From the NCBI GenBank assembly GCA_964016885.1, contig OZ024742.1, forward strand, positions 98,022,001-98,086,000: DNA of 64,000 nt, given 5' to 3'. The notes under the pieces are model-generated. The model saw nothing but the letters and a program-made list of their open reading frames with translations. It did no database searches and was not told the origin of the DNA. Shown here piece after piece: positions 49,338-59,280 of the stretch (position 1 is its first letter; each line of letters opens with the position of its first letter). The translations under genes were made by a program, and so were the position numbers. Source of the DNA: Eledone cirrhosa (Eukaryota).

Positions 49338-52300
49338 GAAATATCCCTCAGGCAGACAAAGTCATCGTGCTTGGTGACTTTAATGCTAGAGTGGGTAGGG
49401 ATTTTAACACATGGAATGTAATCGGAAGGCATGGGTGGGAAAGTGTAACAACAATGGTATGCTCCTGCTGCAGATGTGTGAGGATCTGGATCTGTGTGTT
49501 ACCAACACCATGTTCCAACAAAAGAACAAATTCAAGACCACATGGTTGCATCCTGCATCTAAGGAATGGCATCTTTTGGAATACGTCCTAGTCAGGATGC
49601 GTGACAGATAGGATGTGCAGTGTGTTCGTGCTCTACGTGGATCTGAGTGCTGGACGGACCACCGCCTGGTACGCGCAAAAGTGAAACTAATCACTAAACG
49701 TAAAATCCGGGCTCCTGGTTTTGCCCTGCCCAAAAGATTGAATGCTGCTCGTCTTAAGGATAAAAATATGAAGAGAACATTGGAAGAAGAGATGCAGGCT
49801 GCAGATCTTGGTGAGGATTGGCCGACCCTTAAAAAGTCGGTTTATGATGTAGGCAGGCGTGTTCTGGGATTGGTGCAGAGAAAACATCAGGACTGGTTTA
49901 ATGAGAATGATGTACATATAGAAGACTTGTTGGCTGATAAGAGGCGTGCTCTGTCACGCTACTTGACGGCAAAACCACAGGAGAGGAATACGTTGCATGA
50001 GGAACTCAGGGATGTAAAATCACGTGTTAGGCGGAGTCTTTCTCAGATGAAGGATCAGTGGTGGAGTGAGAAGGCTGGTGAGATACAAACTGCGTCAGAT
50101 TCCAATAACACAAAGCTGTTGTACAGCCTCTTGCGTGAGGTTTATGGACCGTCTTCTTCTTTGGTGACACCGCTTCGCAGCAAGGATGGCAACGAACTTC
50201 TTCGTGACTCACAAGGAATTCTACGAAGGTGGCGAGAGCACTTTGATGATCTTTTGAATCAGCCGTCTGTCGTCAGTGAAGATTTCCTCAATCTCATTCC
50301 AGAAAATCCTGTGAAAGTAGCTCTCGCAGCACCTCTGACGCTTGTGGAGATTGCAGTGGCTATTTAGAAGCTGAACAGTGGAAGATCTCCAGGTATGGAT
50401 GGCATACATGCTGAGCCCCTACAATATGGTGGTGAGAGACTCCTGCAATATCTTCACTCTTTGTTTGGCAGGATATGGGCTAATGAATCCGTACCTGAGG
50501 ACTGGAGAGATGCAGTAATGGTGGTCTTGTACAAGGGAAAGGGTAACAGGAATGATTGTGGGAACTACAGAGGTATATCATTGCTTTCTGCCGTAGGGAA
50601 AGTTTTATGTAGGGTGCTTCTGGACCGTCTGCTGACACACATTGCAGATTATGTTCTTCCTGAAAGTCAATCTGTTTTTCGTGCTGGACGCGGCAATACT
50701 GATATGATCTTCTCAGCTAGACAGCTCCAGGAGAAGTGCATGGAACAAGGCTTGGATCTGTATCAGGTTTTTGTCGATCTGACAAAAGCTTTCGATACTG
50801 TTAACAGAGATGCATTATGGAAGGTTCTCCAGAAACTTGGTTGCCCTAATAAGTTCCTTGCTTTAGTTAGGTCATTCCATGACGACATGAAGGCTTGGGT
50901 TAATGTCGGAGGTAACATGTCGGAGCCTATCTCAGTAAAAAATAGAGTGAAACAGGGGGATATTCCAGCACCGACCCTGTTTGCCATATACTTTGCAATG
51001 GTTTTCTGTATTGCATTCAGGAATTGAGAGCATGGTGTTTACATTCGATATCGAACCTCAGGCAGCATATTTAACATCAGGCGCTTTGCTGCTAAGACAA
51101 AAGTATTTACATCAATCATAAGAGACCTCTTGTATGCAGATGATTGCGATCTTGTAGCGCACACAGAGAGTGATATGCAGCACATTATGAATGCATTTTC
51201 TGACGCTTGCACTGCCCTATGATTGACTGTCAGTCTCAAGAAAACCGTCGTCATGTACCAACCTGCCCCTGGTAAGCAGTACACTGAACCAAACATCTAT
51301 GTGTATGGCAAACGACTTGGAGTGGTTGATCAGTTTGTCTACCTGGGAAGCACTGTCGATCGATACAGCAACCTTGACAGTGAAATCTCACTTAGGATTA
51401 GGAAAGCAAGTGATGCTTTAGGAAAGCTAGAAAGGCCACTCTGGTGTCGGCGAGACATATGCAGGAGGACAAAGATAAAGGTGTACAGGGCATGTGTGCT
51501 CTCTTGTCTTCTTTATGCCTGAAAGACCTGGGTCACATATCGACACCACCTTAATCAATTGGAGCGTTTCCATCAGATGTATCTCAGACGGATCCATGGT
51601 GCTCACTGGAGGGACCACACCGGTGATGTCGAGATTTTGGAAAGCTCTATGTGTGACAGTATAGAAGCTCTTGTGCTTAAGCAACGACTCCGTTGGAGTG
51701 GTTACCTTGCCAGGGTGAAGGATTCCAGAATACCAAAACAACTCTTATATGGAGAGTTGGTTAAAGGAAAACGACAGTCACATAAACCAAAAAAGAGGTT
51801 TAAGGATTCTCTGAAAGACGCTAAAATCTGCTGATACATGGGAAAACGTTGCTACTGATCGTAATAAATGGAGAAAGACTGTATATGAGGGAAAAGTTGC
51901 CTTTGAGGCATCTCGAATCGCATACGAGAAAGTAAAGCGGGATGTGAGGAAGGGCATTGCTGTTGCACTTCCAGACGGCGAGGGTCCTCCTATGGTGCTG
52001 ACATGCAGCGTCTGTGCGAAACTCTGCCTAAGCAAAGCTGGACTCGAAAGTCATCTTCGCAGTCATAAAGCAAGACCAGTGGTTGACTACCAGGCTGCTG
52101 TTGGAGATGCTACTCTTCATGCTGGCCAAACATGTGGTAGAGAATGTAAATCAGCAGGAGGGCTCAAGCGACATGCAAAAGTACACGAACTCCAACCACA
52201 GCCGACTATTCCCAGTGAATGTTTTGGTTGCCGACTCTGTGCAAGACATTTTAGATCATTGGCTGGGCTAAAAAGCCACATTCGATCGCAGCGCTGTTAA

Positions 52301-52437
52301 TTGCTATCGTGTGTGTGTGTATAGATATGCTTATGTGTGTGCGTGTATGTGTATATATATATGTATATGTATATTATTATTGTTGTTGTCGTTATTATTA
52401 TTGTTGTTATTATTATTATTATTATTATTGTTATTAA

Positions 52438-52503
<66 letters not shown>

Positions 52504-52508
52504 TATAA

Positions 52509-52575
<67 letters not shown>

Positions 52576-52648
52576 TTTTTTATATATTTATTAATTTTTT
52601 TTTCTCCTCGTGCAATGGCCATACTCGATAATGAGGGGGCAGCCATCA
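49338..52648 (+). mobile_element. 5'-truncated RTE-clade LINE (partial APE, RT, three C2H2 fingers), pseudogenised
   Basis: GDFNARVG, WTDHRLV, SPGMDGI, NYRGISLLS, FVDLTKAFD, KQGDIPAPTLF, LLYADDC, YLGS, RLRWSG; several stops and frameshifts; flanked by (TATG)n on both sides. Confidence 0.96.
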
Positions 52649-52809
52649 TGTATGTATGTATGTATGTATGTATGTATGTATGTATGTATGTATGTATGTA
52701 TGTATGTATGTATGTATGTATGTGTGTATGTACGTAAGACTTTATGTATGTATATATATACGTATGTATATATATATATATATATGAGTATATATATAAA
52801 TATGTATAA

Positions 52810-52889
<80 letters not shown>

Positions 52890-52949
52890 GCGTGTGTATG
52901 TGTGTGTGGTGTGTGTGTGTGTCTGTGTGTGTGTGAGTGTGTGTGTGCT

Positions 52950-55470
52950 TGGTAAACATAGATCTCTGCTGAGGGTGTTACTGTACGCAGTCTACGAATG
53001 CAGGAGATAACGCCTCATCAGTTGGTGAAGTATCTCTGCAGGTGTGTCGGCCCCTTTCACCGCGACACTAGAACTACTCGGGGTCTCCCACCGGTGTAGG
53101 CAATGAAAATCCTGCGCCACAGCACAATCTCTGATGAGCTTGGTGTTGTGATTAGGTCCAGCTCAACGCCTCAGCAAATCGGAGTCATAACACCTCCGGT
53201 CGAGCGTTACCATCCACCTCATTTTGTTAATATCAACATTGATCTTCTCTTTTGTGTCATGTGTAGTAACCCACTTTCTAAAATCTTGCCGATAATGCTC
53301 TGAAAAAGGATTTCCTTTCCTTTCCCGCCCGTTCAATGCACCTAATGAACGAATTAACACTGGTTTCGATAAATCCTCTGAGTACTTCATTTACATGAAA
53401 CAGGATGTCTCCTATCCACAGGCTTCATAGAGTTCAACAAACTCACTGTAATTCCTAACTTTCCTTTTGAATGTATCATCCATATTAGCCTCCCAAGGGA
53501 TAGTAAGCTCTACCATCTTCGCGATCTCCCTTTGCTTGCACCAGAACACGAGGTGGGTCTTTCTGTGATAATAAGGAGAAAGTAGTATTTGCCGTCCTGT
53601 TCAAATGAGACCTCCTAGATCTCCTTCTATTTTGAGTCAGTCCCTTTCAAATTGTGGCTGGCTTGAGGTGTTCTTCTATATAAAACCTCATCTTGTTTTT
53701 CCGCTCTAGCCGTAGTATCTCTGTGTTGTTCATCCTCTTTACCATCTCCTCCACTCAATCAGCCAGTGCTCTAAGCACCTGGTTATGCCGCTATGTTCCT
53801 TAAGCCCAGTAGGTAGCTGGATAGTATGTGTCTCACCCTTTCCGTCTTTCCTCATTTGTACAAGCCTCTCTCTTTACTTTCGAACGTTTGGGGTTTGTGG
53901 AACAAGGAAGCATCTCATAGACAAAGCGAAACAGAAAACTAGGTCTGACTGGCTCCAATGACCACAATTACTTCCAACCGATCTTCCGCTCAACCACAAA
54001 CTCCTCTAAGGACACACATTGTTCTTGTTGGCCACATAACGACTTCATATTTCCTCCCTTTTTCTCTAGTCAACTACCGTAACGCTTCTCTCCCTCTGAT
54101 ACATACCGTAATATGGTCTGAATTAGGAACTGCCAAGTGAAGGACTTACTATAAAATTGTAGGCCATGAAGAAAGGCCATGAATTACTCCATTTCCTCCG
54201 ATGCCATCCATTTTTTATCTCTCATGAGACCAGGTTGGGAGCAGCAGATGTTTTGGTTACTTGAATGGTGCAGCATCAGCACGGTCTAAACGTTACCCAC
54301 TTGTATTGCTTGACCACCGATACGATAAGTAATTCTAATGGACCACCATTTTTGTGCAAATTGGCACATGCAGCCACCTGAGCAAATTGCCAAACGCAGC
54401 CACTTTAGGAAATAGATGTTGTATTTCCACTCAATGATCTCAACAGGCATTAAAGCAGCTTCATACACCATTAGTTGCCACTGCAGTCGGTGGCACAATG
54501 GAATCTGCATGCTCCAGTTCTTGAACTTAACTGGATATAATGTCTCCTCTATTGCTGAAAGTTCATCCTCGGCCATCTTATGGATGCCTAACCCCTCACT
54601 TCTATCATTGAGTAACTCATAGTAAAGTGTCCCTAGAGGCTTCAAAGACTTTTCTGCAATCGCGGCATGATCTCGTCTACAGATGTATACTTCATTTTAT
54701 GTTGGCCTCCACACTACAGGAATATTTGGTTTGAAGTTCGTCACCACCCAGCGTATTAGCTCATGTAGTTGGTGCAGGATTTCCACCATTAACTTCTTGT
54801 ATTTTGTTAACAATGTTATGTTACCCATGAACTCTTTCACTGGGGAGCGAATCTTCATTTCACATTCCTGAAAGTTTGTACCTCATCTGATGAATTCCAT
54901 TTCAAGCACGAACCATTTGACTAATATTGCGTACTCAGCTGCAATCCCTACTACCAGCTTGTGCCTCGGTGTTGTACAGTTCCTATAAACGTCAGTAAAA
55001 CATGCTGTAATAGTTCTTCATAAGTATCCCGTCCTCCGGAGGCATCCAGAAGAGCTGTTTGTGTAAGACTCACCCTAAACCATTTGCCAGGTCAAGTCAC
55101 ACAATTGCCATGTCACTTTTCACTCTCTTCCTTGTCTGTATGTGATCCCTGATCATGTTCACCTTTTCTATGCATGCATATTCACAGAGACACCAGCTTT
55201 TTGAGATACCAGCCTTTTACACCGTACCGCTGATGTAGACATTATCCAACAGAAATATTATCAGTCATCTGGCAATAATCCCGAGGAATATTTTTTCATA
55301 TAATTTCCGTAGAAAAAATGGCGTAAACGTGTCAGGTGTTGGGGAATTTTGCAAATGGGGAAGACAGAGCCTTCTGCTCTAGCACAGCAATCCACAAGCT
55401 TTTCTAAGAGTGATAAAAAGCCTGTTCGTCAGAGTGAGGCAATTCTTGTAGACACTGTATGGCACAAATA
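52950..55470 (-). mobile_element. Decayed HERO-like RLE non-LTR retrotransposon
   Basis: VPYSVYKNC, V*LDLAN, KPLGTLY...PVKFKNWSMQ...LMVYE...KWL, and RLE region LVFWCKQ...VELTIPWE. Confidence 0.8.
52999..53068 (-). ncRNA. Permuted/pseudoknotted hammerhead-like structure in the HERO-like 3' UTR
   Basis: gtGTC-gcggtgaa-aggg-gcc-GAcA-cacc-tgcagagatac-ttcaccaa-CTGATGA-ggc-gttatctcctgca. Confidence 0.55.
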
Positions 55471-56051
55471 AGTGATAATGACACAAAAATGGCATTAACT
55501 TCTTCTTGTTTAAAAAGCGTTTCTTAGACTATCACTTGTATCCTAATTCTCATGCATCTACTACTATAACTGACTTCATATATTTGGGCTTCATTTAGCC
55601 AGATGTATTTTTTCCATTGTTGCAATAACTTGGTGAGAACGCTCTCAGTATTCGTCACTCACTAGAATTTGATGGGAAGAAATCCAAGAATAAATGAAGA
55701 ACGTGGATATGCAAGGGCATATTACAGACCAGCATCTAGTGAGAAATCAGTAGATTTGGCGCAGGCTTTAAGTAGTTTCCGCTCTGTAATTTCCTAGAAA
55801 ATACTGTAATATTGGTCGAAAATTTTCCACACTTAAAACTTTTTCCAAAAGAATTCGGCCAAATTCTTCGTTTTTTGTGAGTTCACGAATTTGGAGTCCG
55901 ACAAATTGCCCACGTTAAATTTCGCTTAACTTAGTTTTGGCAACTTCCTTCTCAGATACTGTCTTGTTTCATATAGAATTTCTATCAAATTGTTCAGGAA
56001 AAGTGAATGATTAGGAAGAGGCAATATGAAAACATTATTGCATTATATTTC

Positions 56052-56237
56052 TGTGGATTGGCAGTATCGGTACAGATTCGGACACCATGCTCTGACGCAT
56101 TGAGTTACGCCCCTTGCCATTCTGAGTTCTAATCTCGCAGAGGTTAACTTTGCCTTTCATCCTTACGGGGTCGATAAAATAAAGTACCAGTAATGTACTG
56201 GCTAATTGCTGGCCTTGTGCCAAATGTAGAAACAATT
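56052..56237 (+). mobile_element. tRNA-derived SINE with TSD attatatttct
   Basis: Family match; flanking direct repeat. Confidence 0.9.
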
Positions 56238-56640
56238 ATATTTCTTTAAAGCATTTGGCAATTCCTAGTTGATAAATCATAAACAATGATTGAATCATAC
56301 ACCTGCATTTTACCATATATAGTGATATTACATGGAAAGACGAGTTTTGGTTTTAGTTAACGTTTATTTAGTTGCTTTTGATCAATATATGTTCAGTGAA
56401 ACAAAAATGTTTACAACCATTGTTATTGGTAAGAAAATATTTGACCTATATTTGTTCCTACTCTGTTGACAGTGACCCAAGTTCTTTTAATTTCATTAAA
56501 AACGGAAAAGCAGTCTTTGAACTCAATTTCGAATATAGGAGGAACACTTTAAAAATGAGTTTTATTTTCGAATTCAACGCCGCTAAATTAGTAAAGATGA
56601 ACTGTTCGGGTCACATTGTAGGCCAGCGTTATCTTAGGAT

Positions 56641-56755
56641 AATTGTTTCTAGTTTTGGCACAAGGCCAGCAATTACCCAGTGTATTAATAGTACTTTATT
56701 TTATCAACCCCATAAGGATAAAAGGCAAAGTTAACCTCGGCGGGATTTGAACTCA
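56641..56755 (-). mobile_element. 5'-truncated SINE with 15-bp TSD ttatcttaggataat
   Basis: TSD at 56629-56643 and 56756-56770. Confidence 0.9.
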
Positions 56756-57939
56756 TTATCTTAGGATAATGTAAAACAAAACCTACGCCAGAATGCAAAT
56801 ATGCATATACAACAACCTGATTTAGTGATCACTTAGAAGTGAATAGATACGGAAGGCTATATAATCTAGAAGAAAGACATGGTGATCTTTTATGACGTCC
56901 TAGCAGTGAACATCTGTATTTTGCCTAGATAATATTATTTGTGTTTTATATTTAAAATAGTGTGATGTGATGCTATGTCTAGAGGAGATAATGTAAAGCT
57001 CCTTCGCTGTTACCTGTTAATATAAGTGTTCAGGTAAACTCGGCTATTCTATCAATGCAAAGGAATCTTTAATGAATATGTTTTTTCTTTTGTTCTAGTA
57101 GATTGTGTAGTGTATATCAGCTACCAGTGCCTTATAGTATGGAGAGTAACGTGTTAAATTACTTGAGACAATATTTGTTTATGTGCTTGATTTCAGCATT
57201 AACTATATTATATTTAGTTGAATAGCTGATAAATTGTGTCAAAATATGGTATTTCTCTGCCAAACAAAGATCACTTTTCTTGGCACATTCATGGTAAGCT
57301 TTGGCAAGCTCAGTGATTGACCCTTTTATTGCTATAGTGATTTTGCTTTTCTCTCTTAATAACTAAATAGGGTAATACAGAGGCAGGTAGTTTTAAAGAC
57401 GCTAGTTCCTGGTGTATAAGAAATGTTAAACATAATTCCTGTGAACTTACGTAAAATTGGTTTTGATAACATTCTTAGCATTACCATAGTATGATAAACA
57501 AAAAAACTTTCCTAATATTCTCTCTTTAACATGGTCACTAGTTTACGTTTTTGCACATTCATTACGATTCTGCGATAAGATTAACCTTTAATAATATTTA
57601 CTCTATATCAAGCTCCACGTAAAATAAATAAATCTGATTTTCATATTTTATTTTAGGTTGTTGCACATATCAACACTGATCGAGTATATATATGATCAAA
57701 AGTATTCCAGCCATCTCATTTATTTTTTTTTATTTTCAGAAATGATTAGTCAAGGATAACACAATATATCTGTACGGAAAAATTCAGGATTCCGATGGCT
57801 ATACTCCGGCCGTTTTGACAGCTAGATTCTAAACAGTTCGGATCTTTTCATATTACCTACTCTACTACCTCAAGTATTGAGTACTCTGGCGTGTCATGGT
57901 CCACCTGCTATCTTACCACACCCTCTTTGTTATATATAT

Positions 57940-58022
57940 ATAGGAACAAGTAAGACCCTGACGGCTGAGCTCAAGCCGTTTCGACGGTTGAGCTCAGCCG
58001 TCAGGGTCTTACTTGTTCCTAT
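57940..58022. repeat. Near-perfect 39-bp hairpin (TTCG loop) between about 88-bp direct repeats
   Basis: ataggaacaagtaagaccctgacggctgagctcaa(g)ccgt-ttcg-acggttgagctcagccgtcagggtcttacttgttcctat. Confidence 0.95.
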
Positions 58023-58261
58023 TACCCACTCTACTACCCTAAGTATTGAGTACTTTAGTGCGTTATGGTCCACCTGGTTCCTTACCACATTTCCTTCGTT
58101 ATATATATATATATATATACATATAAATATAAGAAAAATGGAGTGCTGCGTGGATCACATGGGTTACAAATGAATAAAATTAGTCCTTCATCAGTGATCT
58201 TCCAACCTTCATTGGTATTTCATCGCTTTAAAAATCATATACTTCTGGTTGGTGCGAGCAA

Positions 58262-59098
58262 TCTATATATATAAAACTGTGGTTGTCTGTCTGTCTATCG
58301 ATTTTTGGCACACATCTCCTCTTAGAATCTCTGACGGAATTGCACCGAAATTGCTATACATTGAGCCCTAGCGAAGACATCGGAAAAAAAAAATTTCAAA
58401 TTGATCCACCCTATGTGACGAAATCAAATATAATGTATCGATTTTTGAGCGTAAGTTATCAGTTATTTCCCTTTGTTCTGTTTACATTGAGCGTCTTACG
58501 TAAACAAATTACGAGCCAGCTAAATATTGACCTGCAAAATTCATCAGTTCGAACACTAAGCTTCCGTTTTGCATCATTTCCATTTAAAAGCATTTTAAAA
58601 CAATATTTTTACTTGAAAACAAGTCTATTTAAAGACTACGTAAAACAAGCAAATATTTCGTCGTTAGGCGTGCAGACAGACAGTCGTGCAGAGAGGTGAT
58701 ATAGGCGTGCAGACAGACAGTCGTGCAGAGAGGTGATATAGGCGTGCAGACAGACAGTCGTGCAGAGAGGTGATATAGGCGTGCAGACAGACATAACTGA
58801 TAATTTGGTTACGCTAATGTTTTTCTCTGCGTTGCAGTGTTTACATTTTCGATCTTTGTTAATAAATAACCAGTGCAGTTTCTATCCCCAGCATCCTCTT
58901 TTGTTATAACATTCGGGTTATCGTTATGCTTTCTTAACTTCATAAGGCATATTGTTGGTTGAGGGAATATTAATCAAAAACACCACATGCAAGTCTGCAC
59001 AATAGACACTACAGTTTTTAAGCCAAGAAAGAAACTTAACATTGTAACTTTAACACAGCTACTGAGCGACCCCGAGCAACGCCGGGCTTTACTGCTAG
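58262..59098 (+). mobile_element. Non-autonomous Helitron-like element with 37-bp tandem repeat (58665-58793)
   Basis: A|TCTATATATATAAA start, (GTCT)n, 3' hairpin cccgagcaacgccggg then CTAG|T; no TSD. Confidence 0.8.
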
Positions 59099-59236
59099 TA
59101 ACTAAATAAAGTTATTGGGACAAGTAAATTAGCGTGAAGCGAGCGAGACGTGTAAACAAACAAAGATGGTATTGGAACGCAAAGATAAGAAGAGACAAGC
59201 ACATGATATCTATAAGCTTAAGCTTAGTGAAATCAT

Positions 59237-59280
<44 letters not shown>

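Follow-up and report, generated by a model that had tools for sequence, protein, structure and literature searches.

A rewired hammerhead-like fold in the 3' untranslated regions of HERO-like LINEs and a possible route through circular RNA

The 3' untranslated regions (UTRs) of HERO-like LINEs almost certainly share a conserved six-helix RNA fold that contains the core bases of the hammerhead ribozyme. By every sequence test that we ran the motif behaves as a hammerhead, and it stands outside types I-III, SGC and PK: as read from the alignments, it combines the pseudoknotted block order of type SGC with a core that is open between A9 and G10.1. Intact copies would very probably be cut after an NUH triplet by the hammerhead mechanism. 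We lean towards a route in which the 3' UTR RNA likely cleaves itself and likely re-closes as a circle, which the reverse transcriptase (RT) of the element would copy from a fixed internal point.

A decayed HERO-like LINE and its motif

In the window (the whole stretch of 64,000 nucleotides that was analysed), a preliminary description had placed a decayed, strand-permuted hammerhead at 52999..53068 of the minus strand. The flagged copy, a member of what we call family 1, proved to be larger, with a full extent of 53116-52999, and its hammerhead words lie about 180 nt 3' of the endonuclease region of its host element. The features are as follows.

52948..55465, minus strand: decayed, 5'-truncated HERO-like RLE LINE (family 1), from tblastn and the shared 3' end of copies
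About 55465-53740, minus strand: RT of the host
About 53564-53242, minus strand: endonuclease of the host, followed by the 3' UTR to about 52948 and then (CA)n
52999..53116, minus strand: whole rewired motif, strands in the order IVa, V, IIa, III-ext a, IIIa-cut-Ia, IIb-GAAA-IIIb, III-ext b, Ib-CUGAnGA, IVb
53107..53116, minus strand: helix IV, 5' strand, partner 53008-52999 (17-24 of 25-26 family-1 copies paired per position, 10 positions)
53086..53101, minus strand: hairpin V, flush at G10.1, read from the family-1 sequence and flush in other families too
53080..53085, minus strand: stem II, 5' strand, G10.1 = 53085, partner 53049-53054 (17-24 of 25-26 copies paired per position, 6 positions)
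53069..53077, minus strand: stem III extension, 5' strand, partner 53038-53030 (18-24 of 24-26 copies paired per position, 9 positions)
53056..53068, minus strand: stem III 5' strand, GUC triplet (C17 = 53064) and stem I 5' strand, with the cut predicted between 53064 and 53063
53042..53054, minus strand: stem II 3' strand, GAAA (GA[C]A at 53048-53045; A14 -> C at 53046) and stem III 3' strand
53015..53029, minus strand: stem I 3' strand and CUGAUGA (C3 53021, A9 53015)
52999..53008, minus strand: helix IV, 3' strand, the same strand that had been drawn as part of a clamp with another partner

The host had been taken for a HERO-like LINE with a restriction-like endonuclease and the motif in its 3' UTR, and protein searches bear this out. 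With tblastn, fish HERO-type proteins matched the RT at 23-29% identity (E about 1e-28), and the endonuclease has a relative at 36-45% (E 2e-15). The same searches show the order of the HERO clade (RT, CCHC knuckle, PD..D endonuclease), but broken: the single ORF carries many stops and frameshifts. A protein search with the decayed family-1 piece gave no matches, and the relatives came from a HMMER search. Judged by the RT identity, and by a branch length of 1.47 in a quick endonuclease tree without an outgroup, family 1 is a long-branch relative of the HERO clade. On the plus strand at 49400-52300 lies a decayed LINE of a different kind (RVT_1, E 1e-20), with zinc-finger-like repeats at its end.

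The hammerhead words GUC, GA[C]A and CUGAUGA are all present at the minus-strand positions first given for them, together with helix I (6 bp, its base carrying two mismatches) and a 4-bp helix III. Helix IV has 6 bp left in this copy, and stem II, formed with the upstream strand, has one A.C mismatch. The copy had been called decayed, and so we find it: in addition to the mismatches in stem I, A14>C departs from the core bases (CUGAnGA, GAAA, NUH), and the minimum-energy fold is no better than that of its own shuffles (z -0.36). We predict that it is a mutated and inactive fossil. Rfam gave no hammerhead match at E<=10 in 50000-58000, as had been anticipated for standard models.

A DNA search of the genome with family 1 returned 41 matches from the 40 of 46 candidates that were scored, so that the family has at least this many. 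We aligned 27 copies and kept 26, leaving out L027 as misaligned. A14 is A in 24 of the 26 and the core is intact in seven; the commonest letters of the alignment restore it, GAAA and CUGAnGA included. An exact pattern search of the genome gave a single match, because the family is old. One family-1 locus (L215) has a short local duplication of the ribozyme 3' half, beginning near the cut.

Occurrence across HERO-like elements

Conservation of the core across HERO-like families, which the preliminary description had named as a check, was found in loci selected by protein. We chose metagenome loci by their HERO-type endonuclease protein alone, taking the best 80 of 181, of which 69 had at least 200 nt downstream. 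The descriptor used only the core bases and stems I and III, so that these two stems are part of the selection. Just after the ORF it matched 40 of the 69 loci in its tighter form, with cut triplet, GAAA and CUGAnGA in order, and 41 in its looser form; the controls gave 0/69 reverse strands, 0/64 coding stretches and 0/1380 shuffles. Among the remaining 29 loci, seven have a version of the motif in which one core base is mismatched or a stem is short. A covariance model recognised 20 of the 29 with E-values, which are rough, of at most 3e-5; of the others, two scored weakly and seven gave no match. The seven loci in which no method found a motif (L143, L147, L151, L152, L162, L163 and L166) may have been rearranged or may belong to lineages from which it was lost. 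Motif-bearing loci are scattered over the entire quick endonuclease tree, which has no outgroup.

A covariance model built from 37 motifs, without either family of the window (model R1), found three of eight family-1 copies and missed the flagged copy at E<=10. The same model identified two further decayed HERO-like families with the motif in this genome (L074, E 2.5e-11; L078, E 1.6e-6). At the gathering score, Rfam had no match in 18 loci, five of them with an intact motif. Viral contigs were searched twice, with one unrelated match in one search and none in the other.

A protein search of this genome also led us to a younger HERO-like LINE, family 2 (L062-L081), with the same block order and different stem sequences. 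Its single ORF holds RVT_1 and zf-RVT domains with PD and ELTVPWE motifs, and the closest solved structures to its protein are those of R2. Teleost proteins, from flatfish and mackerel, match this protein at up to 88% identity; should the host not be a fish, recent horizontal transfer would be indicated. The family-2 protein is 58-65% identical to the Takifugu BAC82598 and Tetraodon AAN12398 proteins, and both of these fall among the motif-bearing loci in the quick tree. We take BAC82598/BAC82599 to be HEROFr/HEROTn and AAN12398 to be Zebulon. In the Takifugu and amphioxus proteins the C-terminal tail looks like the translated 5' half of the motif, a likeness which suggests that these elements carry it too.

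Wiring of the six helices

We aligned 37 distinct cores and compared pairing within and between 36 motifs, leaving out L123 as cut off. The sequences are not independent. Their kinship raises the between-motif control, which on this count makes the comparisons conservative. All 12 invariant columns of the 37-sequence alignment belong to the hammerhead core or to 15.1-16.2, and every helix varies. Stem I is 96.8% paired, with two-sided changes in all five pairs, and 15.1-16.1 is kept in 37/37. Position 17 is never G in the seven loci that were found without that filter. At the family level, the S-G-C order (cut site, GAAA, CUGAnGA) occurs far above chance, and the claim of a pseudoknotted core outside types I, II and III stands.

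The preliminary description had drawn three helices and named their covariation as a check. Stems I and III do covary across families; stem II as drawn, with its second strand directly after CUGAnGA, does not hold, being 39.6% paired, with the first pair (10.1-11.1) broken in 32 of 37 sequences and formed in five. Its GCC/GGC pairing is specific to the flagged copy (the middle pair is paired in 4/26 family-1 copies), and across families the partner lies upstream. That upstream strand, about 20 nt 5' of the cut, is 95.5% paired, with two-sided changes and a conserved G10.1, and the 10.1-11.1 pair formed with it is G-C in 29 and G-U in five of the 37. A strand 19-20 nt 5' of U16.1 can make at least four pairs in 35/37 sequences, against 7, 14 and 8 for control windows of the same size. 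Pairing within motifs averages 4.89 bp against 2.66 bp between them (0/5000 permutations as high), and a stem of 5-6 bp turned up unprompted in six of the seven near-miss loci and in two long-UTR loci.

Two further helices have the same kind of support: the stem III extension (6.58 vs 4.41 bp) and helix IV (9.58 vs 5.14 bp), each with 0/5000 permutations as high. A9 is not joined to a stem II strand by 0-2 nt but runs into helix IV, which begins one base after A9 in 33/36 motifs and has its 5' strand far upstream; in family 1 the offset from A9 is 6 nt. Hairpin V fills the space between the helix IV 5' strand and G10.1 without a linker in most motifs. Family 1 fits this cross-family model with 6 bp in the upstream stem II, 9 bp in the stem III extension and 10 bp in helix IV. 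Minimum-energy folding cannot display pseudoknots; in four intact motifs, with z-scores between -2.8 and -4.7, it recovered IV and V completely enough to be recognised, and III in part. In effect the motif is an SGC pseudoknot that has been closed end to end and reopened at A9/G10.1; IV and V are probably stacked there.

The clamp proposed for the last strand is pairable at 8/10 positions in most family-1 copies, but it competes with two better helices, and across families it pairs no better within motifs than between them (5.19 vs 5.06 bp, 1184/5000 permutations as high). We rejected both this clamp and the downstream helix II. An in-trans dimer had also been suggested, and the core needs none. 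The loop of hairpin V contains a 6-nt palindrome in 22/36 motifs (L089-L165), against 5.15 expected, in sequences that are related: TGATCA in 16, GACGTC in three, TGGCCA in two and AAGCTT in one. Such a loop is like a kissing-loop dimer signal, and on these letters a kissing dimer may form.

A non-coding 516-nt tandem repeat with the same fold

The window holds a second case, a copy of a 516-nt element that is split in two within hairpin V by about 840 bp of inserted sequence; another locus (L232) is split likewise.

58121..58262, minus strand: 3' part of the 516-nt element, AUA cut predicted between 58238 and 58237, GAAA 58221-58218, CUGAUGA 58194-58188
59099..59240, minus strand: 5' part of the same copy

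Model R1 matches it at 58237-58188 (E 9e-6). The repeat is non-coding and young, has the same fold, and shows the insertion pattern that a circular template would leave. The family has at least 40 genomic matches at 94-99% among the 40 of 212 candidates that were scored, with GAAA in 32/32 and CUGAnGA in 30/32 of the units scored. Hairpin V, stem III and stem I are kept, hairpin V with compensatory variants; helix IV has 4 bp, with one extra A after A9, and stem II has 4 bp beyond a C.U or C.A at 10.1-11.1. The z-score of the fold is only -1.16, and the hairpin V loop is not palindromic. Close by, at about 57945-58020, a long perfect inverted repeat lies between two near-identical short repeats and is probably a foldback from an insertion event.

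There were 46 distinct loci, 45 of them resolved. The 3' end falls at unit position 109-120, in (TA)n, in 38/45 loci, and the 5' starts are spread round the unit. Copies longer than one unit make up 17/40 (six split or unresolved loci left out), seven of 45 cover two cut sites, and neighbouring units are closer to each other than to the median other locus in 14/15. We found no endonuclease match within 1.5 kb of 20 loci and no tRNA in six. It would be mobilised, as a retrozyme, by a HERO-like protein.

A circular intermediate and its alternatives

The preliminary description had proposed that the ribozyme processes the 3' end of the LINE RNA. The predicted cut is internal, 90-115 nt before the element 3' end, and inserted copies run through it; the template's 3' end is therefore not produced by this cut, and simple 3'-end processing falls away. 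The circular route that we favour would proceed in four steps. Intact copies would be cut after the NUH triplet; a transcript through a head-to-tail locus would be cut twice, giving a cut-to-cut monomer; because of the wiring, in which helices II, III, III-ext and IV keep the ends paired, these would stay held together and ligation would be favoured, by the ribozyme or by an RtcB-type ligase; and target-primed reverse transcription would begin 90-115 nt past the cut and continue round the circle. Copies made round a circle would share one 3' end, begin at random points on the 5' side and overshoot into tandem units. There is a precedent in the ribozyme-made circles that have been proposed to give the tandem cDNA of retrozymes (PMC7229834).

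In family 2, four of six loci with a 5' end have a 3' end upstream with the same junction, and 3/30 3' ends bear the first letters of the next unit. Among the metagenome loci, a 5' UTR motif follows the 3' end in 7/36 motif-bearing against 2/24 other loci. Long uncut tandem transcripts could be the source of part of the fixed 3' end and overshoot. At locus L117 (53-2969, 3783-6691), two head-to-tail HERO-like units, each with its own motif, are only 69% alike; no single circle made them, and template jumps, or insertion next to existing copies, must therefore take place as well.

We saw no pile-up of 5' ends at the predicted cut: in family 1 one of 30 is exactly there, in family 2 one of 30 is at +4 and one at -4, and in the 516-nt family 2/43 lie within 10 nt. 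This fits sealed circles and, equally, an RNA that rarely cuts. One loose contig end lies at a predicted cut and looks like a related family.

An unlikely alternative is the processing of linear RNA in the manner of R2, in which the upstream motif of a partial tandem would free the 5' end of the next unit, the protein of the element would hold the downstream motif uncut, and tandems would arise from template jumps or insertion beside another copy. R2 does leave its co-transcript by a 5' ribozyme (available text of PMC7650587), Rfam detected no ribozyme in other parts of five motif-bearing loci, and the heterologous tandem at L117 would suit the scheme. In locus L095 the sequence opens a single base 3' of the predicted cut and continues into the 5' UTR, but that start is a contig end. 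The scheme predicts just the piling up of 5' ends that is missing; moreover, two family-2 upstream pieces begin 42 and 25 nt before the cut, and the 516-nt copies that go past two cut sites do not suit it.

R2-type proteins bind their RNA in a structured 3' UTR. The motif sits in the corresponding place, its core is interrupted, and nearly all copies lack a scar at the cut, all of which would suit a scaffold of hammerhead descent that, as the structured 3' UTR of R2 does, serves to bind the RT and has little or no cleavage activity. We consider this improbable, slightly more so than R2-like processing: a scaffold gives no reason for all 12 invariant columns to be core or 15.1-16.2 while the helices vary, or for position 17 never to be G in the loci found without the filter.

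We give marginally less weight again to a reversible nick serving as an off-switch, which would separate the ORF from the 3' tail on which the RT depends, limiting transposition or timing translation against packaging, so that only uncut or re-sealed linear RNA would be copied. The wiring holds both products paired, and 29 of 30 family-2 copies span the site, the other being without the 8 nt just before the cut, as such a switch would have it; precise inherited head-to-tail junctions, overshoot past one unit and retention of the core in a non-coding element are left unexplained. Least probable by far is an ordinary type SGC hammerhead as first drawn, with stem II directly after CUGAnGA and a clamp: the block order is that of type SGC (PMC10085705), 3 bp are possible in the flagged copy, the first pair is possible in 20/26 family-1 copies and cross-pairing is slightly above chance (1.39 vs 1.11, 145/5000), but the mostly unpaired downstream stem II, with its broken first pair, and a clamp without cross-family support speak against it.

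Setting the circular route beside these, we suggest tentatively, at a little under even chances, that a whole clade of R2-group LINEs (fish, amphioxus, invertebrates) replicates via ribozyme-made circular RNA with a seventh hammerhead wiring and mobilises retrozymes of its own. If the circular model is true, an RLE LINE uses a circular intermediate, which would explain the HERO tandems and provide a second, non-Penelope driver for retrozymes. R2-group proteins are under development for gene insertion, which lends practical interest to an RNA module able to produce stable circular templates.

Comparison with known systems

A viroid hammerhead tolerates a single extra base at the A9/G10.1 step. 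Core insertions of one or two bases have been described (PMC3088659), and hammerhead variants with extra helices are mentioned, citing Weinberg 2015, Eckert 2023 and Forgia 2023 (PMC13725137). Our literature search, which covered text outside subscription journals, Repbase notes and supplements, found no core opened at A9/G10.1 in the available text of its sources (including PMC10162972, PMC12192606, PMC3636483 and PMC2790886) and no tested precedent for two helices breaking the A9-G10.1 link. Within the same text it likewise found no hammerhead, and no mention of any ribozyme, in HERO elements, and HERO is not mentioned in the available text of bioRxiv 10.64898/2026.07.22.740005. The published count of six hammerhead wirings assumes that CUGAnGA is inseparable from stem II. 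The HERO motif does separate them, and strong covariation supports this; it occurs in a retroelement common among animals and is invisible to Rfam. If the motif cuts, the hammerhead core allows more geometries than had been supposed, and many ribozymes in genomes have gone uncounted.

The comparisons that follow refer to the available text of the sources cited. Types I, II and III form a nested three-way junction matched by Rfam, and the HERO motif shows neither feature. The preliminary description had held that its block order fits none of types I, II and III, and this is right; the S-G-C order has, however, been published as type SGC, in RNAs from metatranscriptomes with validated cleavage (Eckert et al. 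2023, PMC10085705). In that text none came from genomes of known organisms, bar one GCS candidate, and CUGAnGA with its neighbouring stem strands was treated as an uninterruptible block. Like type SGC (HRIMA-1), the HERO motif has the S-G-C order, crossing stems I, II and III, a short linker between stems I and II and the same core bases. It differs in that the stem II strand lies 5' of the cut, whereas that of SGC follows CUGAnGA; that block C is broken up, with A9 leading into helix IV and G10.1 preceded by hairpin V; and that the linker pairs upstream, where the extra helix of SGC joins stems I and II.

The PK hammerhead was reportedly first found by Weinberg et al. 2015. It shares with the HERO motif a pseudoknot and an extra helix named IV (Zhan et al. 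2024, PMC11300833). In PK, however, the pseudoknot is formed by the loop of a short stem that A9, G10.1, C11.1 and G12 close; the block order is the standard one and A9-G10.1 is continuous (PMC11300833). The HERO motif has no short stem II after A9 with a loop that pairs with an extra stem-loop, and its backbone is open between A9 and G10.1.

The 516-nt repeat resembles the non-LTR retrozymes and Penelope-like elements in its non-coding tandem units with one hammerhead each, and for retrozymes a circular intermediate and tandem cDNA have been proposed (PMC7229834; bioRxiv 10.64898/2026.07.22.740005). Theirs is a type I hammerhead with a Penelope partner, whereas here the ribozyme is rewired, the partner would be an RLE LINE, and the autonomous LINE itself also carries the ribozyme. 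With the R2-group LINEs the host elements share a single ORF with RT and restriction-like endonuclease and a ribozyme in their own RNA (PMC13725137, PMC7650587); unlike those with 5' HDV-like ribozymes, they carry one of the hammerhead class, in the 3' UTR, with the cut inside the element. Within the HERO clade (HEROFr, HEROTn, HERODr), family 2 is the close relation by its identity to the fish proteins, and the flagged family is a distant relative.
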